Source: Shigella phage ESh25
Sequence record: ON528735
Length of the DNA: 64,000 bases
Direction: 5' to 3' (one strand)
The position numbers were made by a program, and so were the translations under genes. This document shows, piece after piece, positions 12,404 to 17,622 of this stretch. The notes beneath the pieces are model-generated. The model was not told the DNA's origin. It was given only the letters and a program-made list of their open reading frames with translations, and made no database searches. The stretch's first letter is position 1; the number at the start of each line of letters is the position of its first letter.

Positions 12404-13372
12404 TTATTTCAGAAGAGTAACCTCAGCGATTTCTTCCCAACCGTTTTTGTCGGTCATAATAAAGTCAGCAAGATAAAGAGCAGTACGCAGTGAAACATTG
12501 CGTAAACGATTAACATTGACTTTCATCCATGATAATGCTTTATAAGTTTCTTCATCAGAAAGACCGCGCTTTTGCATCATGTCAGTTGAAAGAATAACAT
12601 CTTCAACCCTGACCATAATTTCTTCATTAGCGTGAACACCCAAATCCAAATAAACTGAGCGGGACACTAATGCTTGTAAATGTGGAGCAAGTTTAGTACC
12701 ACGGTCTAATTCGCGGTCAATGTCAACGTTTGTGATAAAAACAATCGTTCCTTTAAATTCAAACTCACGCTCAATGCCTTTTTCTTCTAAATAAGAAGAT
12801 GCAGTGCTCCAGCAGACTTTACGGGTCTCTCCAGTGTCCAGAGCAGCTTTTAGAAGATTAAGAATGTCCATATCAGAGAAAACATCCACATCATCAATCA
12901 AAAGGACAGAATTCGCTTCACGATTATTCCAAAGCTGCTCATAAAGACCAATACCAGAGATTTTACCGTTAATGCTTTTATATTCAATGTATCCATTATC
13001 ATTTGCTTTATTTAAAGCTTTATCTAAAGAATACGTTTTACCAATACCTGCTGCACCAGAGATAATTAATGAACGAATGTTTCCGTTAATAATACCATTC
13101 GTCATCATTCCCATAACATTAAATCTTTTATTAATGCGGGTTTTCATATCTTCATATGATTCTTTAACTTCTTCAACTTTTACACCATCATATGAAATGT
13201 CTGATTTGTAAACCCAAACACCGCGACGTTTACCGTCAATTTCAACAAAAACTTTACCATCTCCTTGTGCATCTACCGGAGCATTATCAGGGAACCACTC
13301 ACCTAAGAGTTCAAAAGTTCCAGAGATTTCTTTACCGAAGTAGATACCCTTATTAATAGTTACAGTTTTCAT
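12404..13372 (-). CDS. P-loop ATPase (Walker A GAAGIGKT, Walker B VLLIDDVD); nrdC.10 position
   Basis: Walker A and B motifs seen in translation; ATG at 13372 with GGAG 7 nt upstream (track start is TTG). Confidence 0.7.
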   Translation of the reverse strand: MKTVTINKGIYFGKEISGTFELLGEWFPDNAPVDAQGDGKVFVEIDGKRRGVWVYKSDISYDGVKVEEVKESYEDMKTRINKRFNVMGMMTNGIINGNIRSLIISGAAGIGKTYSLDKALNKANDNGYIEYKSINGKISGIGLYEQLWNNREANSVLLIDDVDVFSDMDILNLLKAALDTGETRKVCWSTASSYLEEKGIEREFEFKGTIVFITNVDIDRELDRGTKLAPHLQALVSRSVYLDLGVHANEEIMVRVEDVILSTDMMQKRGLSDEETYKALSWMKVNVNRLRNVSLRTALYLADFIMTDKNGWEEIAEVTLLK

Positions 13373-13406
13373 TTTATTCTCCAAATCCGTATCAGTTGAT
13401 AGTTGT

Positions 13407-13436
13407 ATAGTACTATAAAGCTTTATGCTTGTAAAC
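13407..13436 (-). promoter_or_regulatory. T4-type early promoter with conserved leader
   Basis: GTTTAC at 13436-13431, TACTAT at 13412-13407, A/T UP-like tract upstream. Confidence 0.6.
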
Positions 13437-13460
13437 CGTTTTGTGAAAAATTTTTGAAAT

Positions 13461-13484
13461 AAAAAAGGGAGCCCGAAGGCTCCC
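13461..13484 (-). terminator. rho-independent terminator (hairpin GGGAGCC-TTCG-GGCTCCC plus T run)
   Basis: Perfect 7-bp GC stem with tetraloop followed by TTTTTT on minus strand, directly after the stop at 13487. Confidence 0.6.
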
Positions 13485-13486
13485 TA

Positions 13487-14500
13487 TCATTTATAATAAC
13501 TTCGGTGGTTTTCAAGATAGACCTTCTCAAGGAAGTCATCCCAGAAACTCATGTCTACTTTTTGCTGCATACCGTTCTTAGAAGCTTCAGTAGATGCTGC
13601 TTCTACTTGATCGACCACATCTTCCAAAAACTCTTGAACTGTTTTAAATGGATGTTTACCCAACTTCACGTCGAGAATAAATGGAGCATCTTTGAGTGGA
13701 TAAACCAAGTCACCAGTTTTGTAAATTTCCAATAGTTGGAGTCCACCACGGCAAGCATGACTCAGAGCTTTCCAGTCAATACCTTCATTGGCTTCGGCCT
13801 TACGAGCACGTTCACCATATTCAGCATCTAATTTGTTCAGTGACTGCTTAAGCTCAATAAGAGAAAGCGTTGTCTGATATTTACGACCCAACACAGTGTA
13901 GAACGTTTGTGGGCCTGTTTTCTCATGATTATGGAACACCCATTCACAGAATTCGTTTTCTGGAAGACGATGCTTAATATCTTCAACTTTATTTCGACGC
14001 TGCTTAATGGAACCGTCTTCTTGGTAATCAACCCATTGCTCAGGGATTTGATTAACTACTTTCAATACATCACGTAATGCAGCCAAACGAGAACCCTTGA
14101 CACCGTATTTAGAAGCTTGCTTGCGGACATATCCTAAATAGGATTTCATGTTAGTCGTATAAAAACGAGAACGGTTGTCTTGGATAAATTTCCATACATC
14201 AGGCAAATCAGATTTAACCACTAGTTCAGGCGGAGTGTGAAGCATATCCAATGCTACAGTTTCACCATCTGCTGCTAATTTAAAGAAATACTTAAGACTG
14301 TATAGTTCATGGTCAATATCATCTTTAGTGTTTTTAGATGATGTGTTGTTAGTGTTTTTACTCATGTGCTCTTTGACATTTCCGATAAGAATATCGCGAG
14401 CAGGAGGAACAAAGATTTCTTTAAAATCTACATCAGATTCTGGGGTAGAAGTTCCATAAAGATGACTACCAAAATAGCTTTTCATTACTGTTTTCATCAT
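13487..14500 (-). CDS. Pol-beta-superfamily nucleotidyltransferase-fold protein (GS...G...SDVD motif); nrdC.11 position
   Basis: N-terminal YFGSHLYGTSTPESDVDF matches the GSx(n)G...[DE]h[DE]h nucleotidyltransferase signature. Confidence 0.65.
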   Translation of the reverse strand: MMKTVMKSYFGSHLYGTSTPESDVDFKEIFVPPARDILIGNVKEHMSKNTNNTSSKNTKDDIDHELYSLKYFFKLAADGETVALDMLHTPPELVVKSDLPDVWKFIQDNRSRFYTTNMKSYLGYVRKQASKYGVKGSRLAALRDVLKVVNQIPEQWVDYQEDGSIKQRRNKVEDIKHRLPENEFCEWVFHNHEKTGPQTFYTVLGRKYQTTLSLIELKQSLNKLDAEYGERARKAEANEGIDWKALSHACRGGLQLLEIYKTGDLVYPLKDAPFILDVKLGKHPFKTVQEFLEDVVDQVEAASTEASKNGMQQKVDMSFWDDFLEKVYLENHRSYYK

Positions 14501-14970
14501 TCAGCCTTATATTCAATAACAGGACATACTTTAGCTTTACGAGCTTTTAAAAATTCAACGATAACCGATTTCTTGGGTTGAATAGGAGGTAAACCTTTAT
14601 ACGCCCTATCAATATTTTCTACGTGTAAAGCATAATCCTTTTTCCATTTATAATCTTTATATTTTTCACGCAAATGTGCAGGAATAACAAATGAACCGAT
14701 AATAAGTAAAACAACCAAAAGCGCAAGTATAAATGCTGATGGAAGAAGAGTCCATAAACTACCGAAAATAAGCCAACGTTGTAGGCTTTCTGCACAAATA
14801 ATTGTTAGACCTGCGAGTATAGTACATCCGAAAAAAGAAACGAAAAATGTAGGGATAACAATAGACCAAAAGTATGCACACAGTGTCTTAGGTCGTTTCC
14901 ATTCGTCGTTAAACAGTTTGAATAATTTATAGTGCCAAGAGTTTTCATTAATAATCATAATTATAATCAT
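14497..14970 (-). CDS. membrane protein (157 aa, several transmembrane segments)
   Basis: Multiple hydrophobic helices in translation. Confidence 0.6.
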   Translation of the reverse strand: MIIIMIINENSWHYKLFKLFNDEWKRPKTLCAYFWSIVIPTFFVSFFGCTILAGLTIICAESLQRWLIFGSLWTLLPSAFILALLVVLLIIGSFVIPAHLREKYKDYKWKKDYALHVENIDRAYKGLPPIQPKKSVIVEFLKARKAKVCPVIEYKAE

Positions 14971-15488
14971 CCTTTCATTGAAGGTGTAACAGTTGTTAAA
15001 TACTTAATCATAGCCTCAGCTTCTGATTTTGATAATGAAATTTCTCCATTGTTTTGACGAATAGAAATAAAATCCGGATGACGGTCACCACCAGCTTTTA
15101 AAACACACATATAAGTATCAGTTTCATCTTCAATATTTGAAATGATTGAAGCAGTTCCACATGAATGCGGTTTTTGATAAATCAATACAGCTTTTCTTCC
15201 GCCATTTGACTGTTCATAAACTTTTAATACATCAAACAAATCACTTCTTTTATCAATAGCTAAAATGTTATTTTCATCTTCAACGTTAAATCCTTCGGAT
15301 ACTTCATAAAGTGTTACCCATAAATCGCCAATATCAATAACAGCGTTCACTTTTCCATGACTTTCAAGAGCATGACAAATTTTCTTGATTTCGTCATAAC
15401 TCATTTTAATAATATCATCTCCTTGAATAAGAAAGATGTCATTTTTAAATTCAACACGAATTAAACCACTTCCACTTGAAATAAACAT
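14967..15488 (-). CDS. hypothetical protein (173 aa), paralog of the adjacent 184-aa ORF
   Basis: Shares C-terminal motif S[KD]EA.A..[KN]YL..V.P[ST]M with neighbour. Confidence 0.6.
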   Translation of the reverse strand: MFISSGSGLIRVEFKNDIFLIQGDDIIKMSYDEIKKICHALESHGKVNAVIDIGDLWVTLYEVSEGFNVEDENNILAIDKRSDLFDVLKVYEQSNGGRKAVLIYQKPHSCGTASIISNIEDETDTYMCVLKAGGDRHPDFISIRQNNGEISLSKSEAEAMIKYLTTVTPSMKG

Positions 15489-15494
15489 ATTTCC

Positions 15495-16049
15495 TCACTT
15501 TGAAATCATAGTTGGAATGACAGAATCAAGATAATTCTTTAGCGCAATAGCTTCGTCTTTGGTAAATGTGACAATATGTGCTCGAGAATCATCATTTTGG
15601 CGAACAAGTACGACATCGCCATCTTCATAAGAAGTCTTGACATCCAAAGTCGTAGTATAGTTTGCAGCTACTGGATTAATAATGCTAGCACCGCGATCTT
15701 TAGCCCATTGAAGTTTAACCTTTTCGGGTGTTTCGACTGTTTCAGATTCCAAGAATTCTTTCACCTTGGCAACGAATGTTGCCCAATTGTTGATAGAAAG
15801 ACACATAAATTCAGTTTCAATATTACCGCCGTAAAGGCCACGATAAAAACGAACTTGGAGGTCGCCTGTAATATTAGTTACACCGGTAACTCCTGAGGGA
15901 GCATAAGATAAAATCGCAGCCAGTTCCATAGGAAGAATAGTAATACTATCGTCTTCCTGCGTCAGAACGTATACATTATCACGTTTTTCGATAACCAGGT
16001 CACCGAACAAATCAGTTGTTTCAATTACAGCTTTCATATTATTTACCAA
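15495..16049 (-). CDS. hypothetical protein (184 aa), paralog of the adjacent 173-aa ORF
   Basis: Conserved C-terminal motif shared with 14967-15488. Confidence 0.6.
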   Translation of the reverse strand: MVNNMKAVIETTDLFGDLVIEKRDNVYVLTQEDDSITILPMELAAILSYAPSGVTGVTNITGDLQVRFYRGLYGGNIETEFMCLSINNWATFVAKVKEFLESETVETPEKVKLQWAKDRGASIINPVAANYTTTLDVKTSYEDGDVVLVRQNDDSRAHIVTFTKDEAIALKNYLDSVIPTMISK

Positions 16050-16224
16050 TTAAAGTTTCAATATAAGAATCAAGATTTACTTTAGCTTCTTCCATAAGAA
16101 TTTTGTATTTAATCTTGTTAGCATGTCCGGAGAAAGCTGATTCATCAATAATTGTTGATGTATGAACAGCTCTACTATACGTCTCAATTAATTCTCTTAA
16201 TTTAAAAGCCTGCTCACTTGTCAT
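16039..16224 (-). CDS. hypothetical protein (61 aa)
   Basis: Short ORF; ATG overlaps the stop of an upstream 34-codon hydrophobic mini-ORF. Confidence 0.4.
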   Translation of the reverse strand: MTSEQAFKLRELIETYSRAVHTSTIIDESAFSGHANKIKYKILMEEAKVNLDSYIETLIGK

Positions 16225-16356
16225 TACATACTCCTTTGAACCATATCAATAATGTTATTCACCAGATTATAAGTAAACATTGGGTAATTATATTGAATCA
16301 TCACATACACAACAAACAAAACTTTCATTCTCTTCTCCTTGGCAGTTGACAAGATT

Positions 16357-16386
16357 ACTATACCATAACCTTGCCAACTTGTAAAC
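16357..16386 (-). promoter_or_regulatory. T4-type early promoter (-35 GTTTAC, -10 TATAGT)
   Basis: GTTTAC at 16386-16381, TATAGT at 16362-16357, 18-nt spacer. Confidence 0.5.
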
Positions 16387-16551
16387 CATTAAATGGCGTT
16401 TTCAATAAAATTCTGAAGCTTTGTGTGAGCATCAACCATGATTTTCATTTCTTCTTTGGCGAAAGCTGTACCTCTTTCCCGAGAAGAACATTCATAGTCA
16501 GAAACTGCATTAGCATATTCTTCAATTAGTTTCATTAAAAACATCTGCTTT

Positions 16552-16746
16552 TCAGTTTTCATTATTCCACCTAATCATTTCAAGATATTGAACTAACTTA
16601 GCTTTAGATTTATCCAAATCCTTTTTAGCTGTTGCTATACCGTCGTATGAATATCCTTCACAATGCTCAACTGCTAATTGGTATGAATCTATTTCAATAT
16701 CACGTGCTAATTTAATGATTTTTTCAAACTGTTCACGTGTTAGCAT
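16552..16746 (-). CDS. hypothetical protein (64 aa)
   Basis: Short ORF in tightly packed early operon. Confidence 0.45.
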   Translation of the reverse strand: MLTREQFEKIIKLARDIEIDSYQLAVEHCEGYSYDGIATAKKDLDKSKAKLVQYLEMIRWNNEN

Positions 16747-16748
16747 AC

Positions 16749-16952
16749 TTAAGCTCTCGTATTATGATCAATAATTTCATCAAGAAACATATCTAACGCT
16801 TCTATAGCATTATCCACTTTAGTTTCAAAGTCTTTAATGCCTTTATTCGAAATACCCGATGAATACCAAGCAAAGTCAATCAGCTCTTCATCTGCTTTAC
16901 GAATTGAAGCCACTAATTCCTTGATTTTATCTGCTTGCTCTATACTAATCAT
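16749..16952 (-). CDS. hypothetical protein (about 67 aa)
   Basis: ATG at 16952 shares a nucleotide with the upstream stop (TAATG coupling). Confidence 0.45.
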   Translation of the reverse strand: MISIEQADKIKELVASIRKADEELIDFAWYSSGISNKGIKDFETKVDNAIEALDMFLDEIIDHNTRA

Positions 16953-17140
16953 TATTCCACCACATATGACAGAGAGAATATTGCACACGCCATGTGAGTT
17001 GCAACTTCATCACACATATTATAACGTTTCTTAAGAAGTTCTACAAGTTCTTCACTAGTAACTTCATCCATGTCGACGAAAAAATCACCATTAATGATGA
17101 CGTAGATATTTCCTTCTTGATTAAGTGCTTCAATTTTCAT
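16952..17140 (-). CDS. hypothetical protein (about 62 aa)
   Basis: ATG at 17140 preceded by AAGAGGAG; the longer ORF start lies upstream of the promoter -10. Confidence 0.5.
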
Positions 17141-17167
17141 GATGTTCTCCTCTTTATCTAATAGTTG

Positions 17168-17197
17168 TATAGTATCACGGCTCAAACGAAAAGTAAA
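17168..17197 (-). promoter_or_regulatory. T4-type early promoter
   Basis: GTTTAC at 17197-17192, TACTAT at 17173-17168. Confidence 0.55.
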
Positions 17198-17208
17198 CCG
17201 GTAAAATG

Positions 17209-17229
17209 AAAAAAGTCTCCCGAAGGAGA
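17209..17229 (-). terminator. rho-independent terminator (GTCTCC-TTCG-GGAGAC plus T run)
   Basis: Hairpin followed by TTTTT on minus strand immediately after the stop at 17236. Confidence 0.55.
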
Positions 17230-17235
17230 CTAATG

Positions 17236-17622
17236 CTATTCGAGGGAAAGAAGATATTTACTTTGGTAAAACATTCCAGTAATATCATCTATCGTGCTTT
17301 GGATGGCTGGAGGCATTTCTTTATAAATGCTGTTAGATTGGTCTAGTATGCGATCAATCATTTTAATTGTGTCGGTAGGAAGTTTACTGGCATCTGGAAT
17401 TGAAGGCGTGTATTTTCTACCAGAATACCCCAAATATTGCTCACCAAATTTATCAATCAAATCTGGCAACTCGGAGAAAATAAAATCGTATGCTTTGTGT
17501 CTAGCATAACTTTTAGTTTCAAAATGTGCAGAATGAAAATAAGCTTGTGCAGCCATTAATAAACCTAAGTATTCATCTGCCTTTGAAGGTTTTCCACTTT
17601 GTGAAAAGTCGCTGAATTTCAT
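17236..17622 (-). CDS. hypothetical protein (128 aa; rI.-1 position)
   Basis: Intact ORF directly downstream of rI. Confidence 0.6.

Follow-up and report, generated by a model that had tools for sequence, protein, structure and literature searches.

The closest described counterpart of the genes analysed here is mobD.1 of phage T4, whose product (Y05I_BPT4) is a two-domain protein matched by the Pfam models T4_y05I_N (PF24449) and T4_y05I_C (PF24448) and belonging to phrog_1502. A literature search found no paper on the function of mobD.1, y05I, PF24448/9 or DUF7438. T4 also carries free-standing homing endonuclease genes (mobD and other mob/seg genes), which show a classic pattern: the endonuclease gene in one phage, other DNA in its place in another, and conserved flanks on either side. 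A further point of comparison is structural. PC4-like domains, of which PC4 is the prototype, form a class that also holds Pur-alpha, SP_0782 and the MS2/PP7 coat proteins. Their type I topology is b-b-b-b-a-linker-b-b-b-b-a and their type II topology b-b-b-b-a; swapped helices pack on the sheet of the partner repeat, and type II domains are dimeric (Janowski and Niessing 2020).

The two-copy MobD.1 locus of ESh25

We analysed a 64-kb window of the Shigella phage ESh25 genome. The initial annotation had singled out two adjacent ORFs of 173 and 184 aa, proposed as a tandem paralog pair that belongs to an accessory module beside a membrane protein, at the place where T4 carries mobD. The features of the locus are as follows.

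16357..16385, minus strand: sigma-70-type promoter-like site (TTTACA, 17-nt spacer, TATAGT, TG extension)
16224..16328, minus strand: mobD.2, a 34-aa hydrophobic peptide (recognised by sequence; named mobD.2 in RB18 and T4)
16039..16224, minus strand: 61-aa DUF7438 protein (Pfam DUF7438, E 3e-14)
15495..16037, minus strand: MobD.1 ortholog, 180 aa, with T4_y05I_N and T4_y05I_C domains
14967..15488, minus strand: second MobD.1/Y05I-family paralog, 173 aa (RB32ORF097c), identified by Pfam and by BLASTP against its neighbour
15195-15488, minus strand: T4_y05I_N domain of the 173-aa paralog, about aa 1-98
14970-15194, minus strand: T4_y05I_C domain of the 173-aa paralog, aa 99-173
14497..14970, minus strand: small basic membrane protein, 157 aa (RB32ORF096c; phrog_944, E 4e-50)
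13487..14500, minus strand: nrdC.11 nucleotidyltransferase (phrog_388, E 9e-137; Pfam RlaP, E 2e-11)
13466..13485, minus strand: intrinsic-terminator-like hairpin (8 bp stem, 6 GC pairs, then a T run)

The 184-aa ORF (15495-16049, minus strand) is a mechanical reading frame opened by a TTG at 16049. In relatives the ATG at 16037, one base past the stop of the 61-aa gene, is the annotated start and gives 180 aa, which is the more likely length of this protein. The genes follow one another in the order mobD.2 (the first past the promoter-like site), the 61-aa DUF7438 gene, MobD.1, its paralog, the 157-aa membrane protein and nrdC.11, which would be the last gene of the transcription unit; the promoter-like site and the terminator-like hairpin bound the run. 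Only 6 nt separate the 173-aa gene from the MobD.1 gene, the first ATG of the membrane-protein gene overlaps the stop of the 173-aa gene (the annotation of relatives places its start at 14958), and its own stop overlaps the start of nrdC.11. Since stops and starts overlap or nearly abut, the tightly packed run from mobD.2 to nrdC.11 is likely to be translationally coupled. The promoter-like site, a consensus match only, had the top score of the scan (10 of 12 matches), and the scan returned no more sites in total than shuffled controls. Neither mobD nor a third member of the MobD.1 family was found within the window.

The two versions of the C-terminal motif, KSEAEAMIKYLTTVTPSM and KDEAIALKNYLDSVIPTM, are both present in the ORFs. 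BLASTP aligned the 173-aa and 184-aa proteins with 49/173 identities (28%) at E 4e-8 (single comparison), and because this one alignment spans nearly the whole length, the N-terminal halves are also related, beyond the motif. T4_y05I_N matched the two proteins with 117.3 bits (E 5e-34) and 110.1 bits (E 9e-32), respectively, and T4_y05I_C with 82.0 bits (E 4e-23) and 64.2 bits (E 1e-17), the curated gathering scores being 24.9 and 27 bits; both proteins also matched phrog_1502 at E about 1e-66. The genes are adjacent, on the same strand and of the same domain architecture, as expected of tandem paralogs with supported full-length similarity. These sequence comparisons show the two ORFs to be diverged paralogs within the T4 MobD.1 (Y05I) family, and the relationship first noticed in the C-terminal motif and the weakly similar N-terminal halves is borne out statistically. 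At 28% identity the duplication is old. Strictly taken, the sequences are compatible either with duplication in situ or with recombinational capture of a divergent allele.

The pair is already catalogued: the family is in Pfam, and GenBank KF208315 (phage PST) names the two genes MobD.1-1 (the 173-aa gene) and MobD.1-2. Other GenBank names, namely 'molybdopterin-guanine dinucleotide biosynthesis protein MobD', 'thioredoxin', 'helicase loader' and 'putative SSB', have no domain evidence behind them and look like name-transfer artefacts.

Replacement by mobD in T4 and distribution of the pair

The annotation of RB18 gives the name mobD.1 to the gene syntenic with the 180-aa gene. T4 MobD.1 matches both Pfam models, the N-terminal one more strongly (147 bits), and the upstream gene is thus the positional and sequence ortholog of mobD.1; T4 accordingly keeps one copy. 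The ESh25 ortholog shares with T4 MobD.1 the two-domain architecture, the direction of transcription and the position upstream of the nrdC.11 side. The two proteins are 46% identical overall; their C-terminal 45 residues are nearly identical, whereas the N domains are different alleles.

The flanks of the locus are 94-96% identical to T4 at the DNA level (95.8% in the nrdC.11 region), and blastn finds no T4 match for the segment 15629-16213. Of the paralog, T4 retains about 19 nt of the 5' end, located after mobD.1, and otherwise has no counterpart. Both the T4 annotation and the blastn comparison place mobD between nrdC.11 and mobD.1. Thus, the initial annotation was right that mobD occupies this place in T4, but needs refining: T4 keeps mobD.1, and it is the 28%-identical second copy and the partner membrane gene that are missing. 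Their place in T4 and the phages closest to it is taken by mobD, a free-standing HNH homing-endonuclease gene that replaced both. The exchange follows the pattern of other mob/seg insertions, with ESh25 carrying the displaced DNA, which is itself no endonuclease.

The paralog pair is the common Tequatrovirus state. Its layout occurs in about 430 phage records, with the 173-aa paralog at least 90% identical in about 433, and the T4 layout in about 47, where mobD is at least 95% identical. The paralog lineage (RB32ORF097c type) was found in Tequatrovirus only. A neighbour-joining tree places the single copies of Mosigvirus and Dhakavirus with MobD.1 and the paralogs in a clade of their own. MobD.1 occurs as alleles of just 46% identity in genomes that are about 95% identical elsewhere, and the 61-aa DUF7438 gene, which has no T4 counterpart, accompanies the ESh25 allele in most relatives sampled. 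Fusion and deletion forms were also seen (P0011, SP21535, P0051). A profile search at full sensitivity across 1.84 billion representative proteins returned only 29 matches: the family itself, its fragments and short unnamed proteins like those of T4-like phages. The exception, P0048 (1572 aa, 12 weak matches), is spurious, as its matches sit on a 46-aa Cys-containing tandem repeat without the family motif.

In the 157-aa membrane protein, two hydrophobic stretches, each about 30 residues long, suggest 2 to 4 membrane spans; its tail is basic. The protein gave tblastn matches in 937 phage records, and its N-terminal and C-terminal motifs are conserved across genera. A relationship to T4 NrdC.7 was considered and rejected (E 0.037 across 39 residues). 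In each of the six Tevenvirinae genera or groups sampled (Tequatrovirus, Mosigvirus, Dhakavirus, Winklervirus, Moonvirus and a Klebsiella T4-like phage), the phrog_944 gene is directly preceded by an ORF with a C domain, a new result, and this ORF keeps its place even where the N domain is missing. In the more distant Aeromonas P19 and Erwinia jumbo phage, the membrane gene is present and no y05I domain was detected. T4 keeps MobD.1, and no homolog of the membrane protein was detected in its positions 1-61000, which argues that MobD.1 does not strictly depend on that partner. As the region is syntenic, the adjacency may also be a matter of common descent and not of functional coupling.

Purifying selection acts on both y05I genes and on the membrane gene. 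Among eight Tequatrovirus genomes (dS up to about 0.18), dN/dS was about 0.17 for the paralog, 0.11 for its N domain alone and about 0.11 for the membrane gene, and the reading frames were unbroken in all eight. The same genes are dispensable in the laboratory and repeatedly broken in nature. Viable genome-reduced T4 mutants lost a fragment labelled nrdC.11-mobD.3 by its authors; both y05I genes are frameshifted in T2, mobD.1 is broken by a 55-bp duplication in KMB40, and the y05I genes are disrupted in ECO4 and deleted in some metagenomic variants. Purifying selection on genes that are often broken or deleted is a new observation here. Together with the tight packing, the tolerated loss in T4 and the natural knock-outs agree with the proposal of an accessory module adjoining a membrane protein.

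Predicted fold and internal repeat

AlphaFold predicts the secondary structure b4-a-b4-a for the N domain, followed by b5-a for the C domain; pLDDT is about 90 in the N domain and about 84 in a separate model of the C domain. The predicted N-domain strands are E2-5, E8-15, E17-22, E25-29, E49-53, E56-60, E67-70 and E75-78; one helix (H31-43) follows the fourth strand and the other (H81-98) comes last. The prediction therefore has the b-b-b-b-a units of PC4-like topology, with one extra strand in the C domain. Comparison of profiles with hhalign indicates homology between the C-terminal domain and the first of the predicted beta-beta-beta-beta-alpha units, which is a new result (probability 92%, E 7.7e-7, a score reached by none of 100 column shuffles). 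For repeat 2, hhalign detected no similarity to repeat 1 or to the C domain (E 0.12-0.14).

In Foldseek searches of the PDB, the best match of the predicted C domain, which comprises five strands and a helix, was MoSub1/PC4 (probability 0.95, TM 0.51, E 0.2), followed by Pur-alpha repeat III (E 0.77), SP_0782 (E 2.3) and the MS2/fr coat proteins; all C-domain matches to solved structures were insignificant (E at least 0.19). The whole 173-aa model had no PDB match at E 1e-3 (E at least 0.03), and its highest-ranked alignments were long and poor (rmsd 17-22 A). Within that search, the best domain-level match of the N domain was SsgB (probability 0.75, E 0.32), which recruits proteins and is no nucleic-acid binder. 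Against viral predicted structures, Foldseek returned only the family and uncharacterised Bacillus and Streptomyces phage proteins without a functional label. The family profile had a single match among the sequences of solved structures, CsoS1D at E 0.38, which we took as noise, and the Pfam scan gave no PurA, Whirly or PC4 match at E up to 0.1. Because every Foldseek match to a solved structure is insignificant, the PC4-like assignment rests on topology and weak matches, and the predicted fold resembles PC4/PUR-type domains only weakly, also a new result.

The likeness to Pur-alpha, whose three PUR repeats combine type I and type II PC4-like domains, would lie in the layout: the ESh25 proteins also have three predicted b-b-b-b-a units, with units 1 and 2 making up one domain and unit 3 standing apart and able, in principle, to dimerise. 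They differ from Pur-alpha in being much smaller (units of about 45-75 aa), acidic in character, unlike nucleic-acid binders, and without a PurA match in Pfam. In size and in predicted sheet-plus-helix topology, the stand-alone C-domain proteins of other T4-like phages (70-87 aa) resemble the homodimeric PC4/Sub1 and the bacterial PC4-like proteins SP_0782 and YdbC, likewise homodimers. Unlike PC4/Sub1-type ssDNA-binding proteins, however, the ESh25 C domain is predicted with five strands, not four, and the MobD.1 C domain lacks a conserved basic/aromatic surface or a significant structural E-value.

Competing explanations and a proposed mechanism

The Pfam label 'putative transcription factor' would make the paralogs ssDNA- or RNA-binding regulators that target nucleic acid of the phage or the host early in infection, in the manner of PC4, Whirly or Pur-alpha, with the membrane protein unrelated to their function. 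The predicted b4-a repeats share the topology of PC4-like domains, the majority of which bind nucleic acids; the C domain finds its closest PDB matches in a Sub1/PC4-DNA complex, Pur-alpha repeat III and SP_0782; and the genes lie among nucleotide-metabolism genes (nrdC.11 nucleotidyltransferase, tk). Yet both proteins and nearly all their relatives are acidic (pI 4.2-5.3), and the conserved strand positions in alignment A2 are alternating hydrophobic residues, likely belonging to the core, with no conserved basic/aromatic set between them. Moreover, the Foldseek E-values are insignificant, PurA, Whirly and PC4 are unmatched in Pfam at E up to 0.1, and the nearest domain-level match of the N domain, SsgB, recruits proteins instead of binding nucleic acid. 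We therefore consider direct nucleic-acid binding unlikely. That the genes are decaying, functionless remnants retained by linkage alone is far less probable still. Disrupted forms in T2, ECO4 and KMB40, deletions in some metagenomic variants and the replacement in T4, where the region is dispensable in the laboratory, would fit such decay. Against it stand intact frames in 8/8 Tequatrovirus genomes, dN/dS values of 0.17 (paralog) and 0.11 (N domain of the paralog), and conservation of the paralog at 90% identity or more in about 433 records.

The origin of the second copy is a separate question. It might be a very divergent allele or ortholog from another T4-like phage that recombined in beside a resident mobD.1, and the strong mosaicism of the locus makes this conceivable: MobD.1 has alleles of 46% identity within genomes that are ~95% identical elsewhere, cassettes such as the 61-aa gene are present in some relatives and absent from others, and chimeras of the two copies exist. 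However, no phage was found with a 097c-type protein as the sole copy at the locus; the 097c clade, confined to Tequatrovirus, always stands beside a mobD.1-type gene or is fused with one, and the orientation, architecture and adjacency of the pair are those predicted for a tandem duplication. Capture keeps a minor share of the probability, somewhat larger than that of nucleic-acid binding.

On balance, the observations are probably best explained by diverged MobD.1 paralogs that dimerise and act with the membrane protein in an early host-interaction module. Each protein would consist of three predicted beta-beta-beta-beta-alpha units, with units 1 and 2 forming the N domain and unit 3 the C domain. 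As this layout is that of Pur-alpha, we propose that homodimers, or heterodimers of the two paralogs, form through the conserved C-terminal unit. The target would be held by the fast-diverging acidic N domain. The C domain is proposed to work with, or dock on, the basic-tailed membrane protein, since its gene almost always lies directly upstream of the membrane gene; the soluble y05I proteins have a pI of 4.6-4.9, versus 9.45 for the membrane protein. The predicted function is that of an acidic, dimerising accessory protein working with a membrane protein, and the module would serve an early, non-essential host interaction (for example host takeover or counter-defence) rather than act as a classical DNA-binding transcription factor. 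Neither paralog matched a PADLOC-DB profile, the membrane protein did so at noise level only, and an NCBIfam scan gave no meaningful match.

A more specific version, which we put forward as speculative and doubtful, is that MobD.1/Y05I represents a lineage, specific to phages, of three-repeat PC4-like proteins re-purposed from binding nucleic acid to binding protein, in which the C repeat heterodimerises and docks on the membrane tail and the N domain sets specificity. If true, Pur-alpha would be the only other protein type known to unite an intramolecular type I with a dimerising type II PC4-like domain.

The pair is a real but ordinary feature, and a T4 specialist will find nothing surprising in it. 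The finding mainly tidies annotation: two-copy MobD.1 is the standard Tequatrovirus state, from which T4 departs through its mobD homing-endonuclease gene. The locus is a clear example of such a gene displacing accessory genes, and also of deep allelic dimorphism within otherwise near-identical phage genomes. The repeat shared by unit 1 and the C domain, the weak PC4/PUR-like resemblance and the position of the C-domain gene upstream of the membrane gene are starting points for experiments. Should the proposed three-repeat lineage prove correct, the locus would encode an early membrane-associated host-takeover or counter-defence module that docks on a basic cytoplasmic tail and bears a hypervariable N domain.

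Identity and setting of the tandem pair

The initial annotation described a 173-aa and a 184-aa ORF as tandem paralogs sharing a C-terminal motif. Both ORFs and both stated motifs are present in the window, and the paralogy was borne out by pairwise alignment: BLASTP returned one alignment, practically full length, at 28% identity and with statistical support (E = 4e-8). Both proteins carry T4_y05I_N and T4_y05I_C, far over the curated Pfam cut-offs, and share one PHROG, phrog_1502; a profile scan of the 64-kb window found neither domain in any other ORF. The 184-aa ORF is a mechanical TTG-start version; translation from the ATG at 16037, one base past the 61-aa gene's stop, yields the 180 aa that relatives annotate. 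T4 MobD.1 also hits the two Pfam models, with 147 bits for the N domain, and was thus taken as the Y05I protein behind the model names. In RB18, the syntenic 180-aa gene is annotated mobD.1 and the following two are RB32ORF097c and RB32ORF096c. Many deposited sequences match the window proteins at 97-100% identity. We regard these gene identities as nearly certain. The finding of a tandem pair is correct but ordinary: the family already has Pfam and PHROG entries, and in the GenBank record of Yersinia phage PST the two genes are named MobD.1-2 and MobD.1-1, indicating that the paralogy had been noticed previously.

Hundreds of Tequatrovirus genomes (T4-like coliphages) share 96-99% identity with the 4.3-kb stretch around the pair; at least 80% of it is covered in 424 records, and Escherichia phage vB-Eco-KMB40 is the nearest relative. 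Every gene of the locus lies on the minus strand. Named after the RB18 and T4 annotations, the genes run along transcription as tk, rI.1, rI, rI.-1, mobD.5, mobD.4, mobD.3, mobD.2a, mobD.2, the 61-aa gene, the 184-aa, 173-aa and 157-aa ORFs, nrdC.11 and nrdC.10, with stops and starts overlapping or almost abutting throughout. This order agrees with the earlier placement of the pair between a membrane-protein gene and small ORFs, and T4 does have mobD here (nrdC.11, mobD, mobD.1).

Features of the locus (window coordinates)
17231-17214, terminator-like hairpin after rI.-1
16749-16988, minus strand, 79-aa ORF (mobD.4), DUF7438 (Pfam)
16552-16746, minus strand, 64-aa ORF (mobD.3), DUF7438 (Pfam)
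16389-16562, minus strand, 57-aa ORF (mobD.2a), DUF7438 (Pfam)
16385-16357, minus strand, sigma-70-type promoter-like site (TTTACA, 17-nt spacer, TATAGT, TG extension), the region's best match
16039-16224, minus strand, 61-aa ORF, DUF7438 (Pfam)
13485-13466, terminator-like hairpin after nrdC.11

The promoter-like site lies directly upstream of mobD.2; the promoter scan of the region was overall not above shuffled controls, so the site is a consensus match only. From this site, the hairpins and the packed genes, we infer one transcription unit. The four small DUF7438 genes (16039-16988, minus strand) make up a second tandem paralog array in the window; in T4 the family is present as mobD.3 and mobD.4, and the 61-aa copy is absent. 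Between nrdC.11 and nrdC.10, T2 (locus L004, 4488-5104) has two additional ORFs, one of them annotated 'RNA polymerase ADP-ribosylase'; both are absent from the window and from T4.

Several GenBank/RefSeq product names in records matching window 12404-17622 resemble name-transfer errors. The mobD.x genes and MobD.1 are labelled 'molybdopterin-guanine dinucleotide biosynthesis protein MobD', nrdC.10 and nrdC.11 'thioredoxin', the 61-aa DUF7438 protein 'helicase loader' and rI.-1 'starvation-inducible transcriptional regulator'. The domain scans back only the nucleotidyltransferase call, for nrdC.11.

Divergence, disruption and the T4 arrangement

In a neighbour-joining tree of full-length family members, the single-copy y05I genes from Mosigvirus and Dhakavirus grouped with MobD.1, and the 173-aa type and a T2-type variant (56% identical) formed a clade of their own that was found in Tequatrovirus alone. 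The tree is consistent with an old tandem duplication after which the downstream copy diverged fast; alternatively, the second copy may be a divergent allele captured by recombination. Sequence comparison shows a highly mosaic locus. Window and T4 MobD.1 are 46% identical, the difference being concentrated in residues 1-135, and eight otherwise similar genomes hold two deep MobD.1 allele classes next to a paralog that is 93-100% identical. Both classes circulate in otherwise near-identical Tequatrovirus genomes, a deep allelic dimorphism. Single-copy chimeras with a MobD.1-type (T4-type) N domain and a paralog-type C domain (database protein P0011; Shigella phage SP21535, L007 2686-3225) look like products of unequal recombination between tandem copies. 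In Salmonella phage KM16 (Moonvirus, locus L011), two tandem ORFs carry the y05I C domain only (1994-2281 and 2262-2501), so duplication at this site occurred more than once in Tevenvirinae.

Nei-Gojobori dN/dS was 0.17 for the paralog, 0.11 for the membrane gene and about 0.35-0.5 for MobD.1, with synonymous sites saturated in the MobD.1 comparisons. By these substitution patterns, they are real genes on which purifying selection acts. They are also dispensable and frequently lost: viable genome-reduced T4 mutants lack a large fragment labelled nrdC.11-mobD.3. In T2 (PV648363.1, L004 1940-3019) both y05I genes are frameshifted, each going out of frame after about 45-55 codons and returning for the C-terminal part. 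Fragments from other T2 records stand as separate proteins in a viral structure library, so the interruption is probably genuine and not a sequencing error. In KMB40 (L002), a perfect 55-bp tandem duplication (about 15770-15825 of the window) shifts the frame and splits mobD.1 into two ORFs; the window version is intact. In a metagenomic deletion variant (P0051), residues 1-50 of MobD.1 are joined to the C-terminal end region of NrdC.11.

Aligned to T4 DNA, nrdC.11 is 95.8% identical, and an 87.5%-identity block covers the last 135 nt of mobD.1 and 25 nt downstream, the latter containing the start codon of the 173-aa gene and the codons just after it. No match was found between nrdC.11 and this block; T4 thus still has a stub of the second paralog. 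The site of the remaining 173-aa gene and of the membrane gene is occupied in T4 by mobD, an HNH homing-endonuclease gene; a review of T4 mobile elements counts it among the free-standing endonuclease genes and places its insertion between nrdC.11 and mobD.1. Across the phage collection, about 433 records have the 173-aa protein at 90% identity or more, and about 47 have MobD at 95% or more; two copies are the usual state, to which T4 is the exception. Window 15629-16213 (the N-terminal two-thirds of mobD.1 and the 61-aa gene) had no blastn match in T4 (L003 7418-7818), and its flanks are 87-96% identical to T4.

Domains, predicted folds and nucleic-acid binding

Searched at full sensitivity, a set of 1.84 billion representative proteins gave only 29 profile matches: full-length members, fragments, a group of C-domain-alone proteins (70-87 aa) and the repeat protein P0048, which was dismissed as spurious. 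AlphaFold2 predicted the N domain (pLDDT about 90) as four strands, helix, four strands, helix, and the C domain alone (23-sequence alignment, pLDDT 83.6) as five strands and a C-terminal helix, on which the shared motif of the initial annotation falls. Profile-profile comparison matched unit 1 (residues 1-45) to the C domain with a probability of 91.7% (E = 7.7e-7), a score approached by none of 100 column-shuffled controls, nor by a reversed control. The common signature is visible by eye (LTQEDDSITI..E.AAIL versus VRQNDDS...VTFTK.EA.AL). Judged by these profiles, the first strand-helix unit is homologous to the C domain; the same method found no sequence similarity of the second unit to units 1 and 3.

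Sequence-profile and structure searches gave no significant match of y05I proteins to a solved structure. The best C-domain matches were a Sub1/PC4-DNA complex (probability 0.95, TM 0.51, insignificant E of 0.2) and, also at insignificant E, Pur-alpha repeat III, SP_0782 and the MS2 and fr coat proteins. A review of PC4-like domains makes PC4 the prototype of a b-b-b-b-a class that also includes SP_0782, the coat proteins of PP7 and MS2, and Pur-alpha, which it names as the one protein known to have both a type I (intramolecular) and a type II (dimerising) domain. The y05I proteins resemble a miniature Pur-alpha layout, with two units in one domain and a separate third, which may be the origin of the Pfam label 'putative transcription factor'. 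For the N domain, the best domain-level match was SsgB (probability 0.75, structural E insignificant), which recruits FtsZ and whose trimer has been described as 'whirly' in shape. Since the Pfam scan found no PurA, Whirly or PC4 match and the structural E-values are insignificant, we take this as a weak PC4/PUR-like resemblance, not as membership. The main rival reading, binding of ssDNA or RNA, is what the Pfam label implies; we consider it unlikely, as the pair is acidic (pI 4.6-4.9, and 4.2-5.3 in nearly all relatives) and the conserved predicted-strand positions are alternating hydrophobics, likely core, with no conserved basic or aromatic set between them.

The linked membrane protein and a candidate mechanism

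By tblastn, the 157-aa membrane protein matches 937 phage records. It has a pI of 9.45, two long hydrophobic stretches and conserved termini (N-terminal NSWHYK...SLCxYFW, C-terminal FLKARKxKxCPxIxF); it had no assignment in Pfam, NCBIfam or PADLOC. In the membrane-protein alignment (A3; 14497-14970, minus strand), two cysteines are invariant in nine genera or groups, one in the N-terminal SLCxYFW and one in the C-terminal KxCPxIxF, both flanked by basic residues.

Profiles for the N domain, the C domain and the membrane protein were run against the ORFs in the retrieved loci. A C-domain ORF lies directly upstream of the membrane gene (phrog_944) in Tequatrovirus, two Mosigvirus phages and Dhakavirus JS10; a C-domain-only gene holds this position in Winklervirus X20 and a Klebsiella T4-like phage, as do the two tandem ORFs of KM16. 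In Aeromonas phage P19 and an Erwinia jumbo phage, the scan detected no y05I domain beside the membrane gene. The repeated pairing, even without the N domain, suggests joint action by the C domain and the membrane protein. It could also be synteny by descent, and T4 is a further caution, as it retains MobD.1 and a scan of its first 61 kb gave no homolog of the membrane protein.

In the mechanism that we consider most likely, each y05I protein would be an acidic PC4-like protein of three units. Its conserved C-terminal unit would mediate dimerisation, perhaps between the two paralogs, its variable N domain would bind a target, and the proteins would cooperate with the small basic membrane protein in an early, non-essential, host-interacting module. 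As a whole, we put this mechanism forward tentatively, as somewhat doubtful.

All together, this analysis adds the internal repeat, the weak PC4/PUR-like resemblance, the membrane-gene linkage and the stub in T4, which shows the displacement of two genes by mobD; all four are experimental leads rather than surprises.
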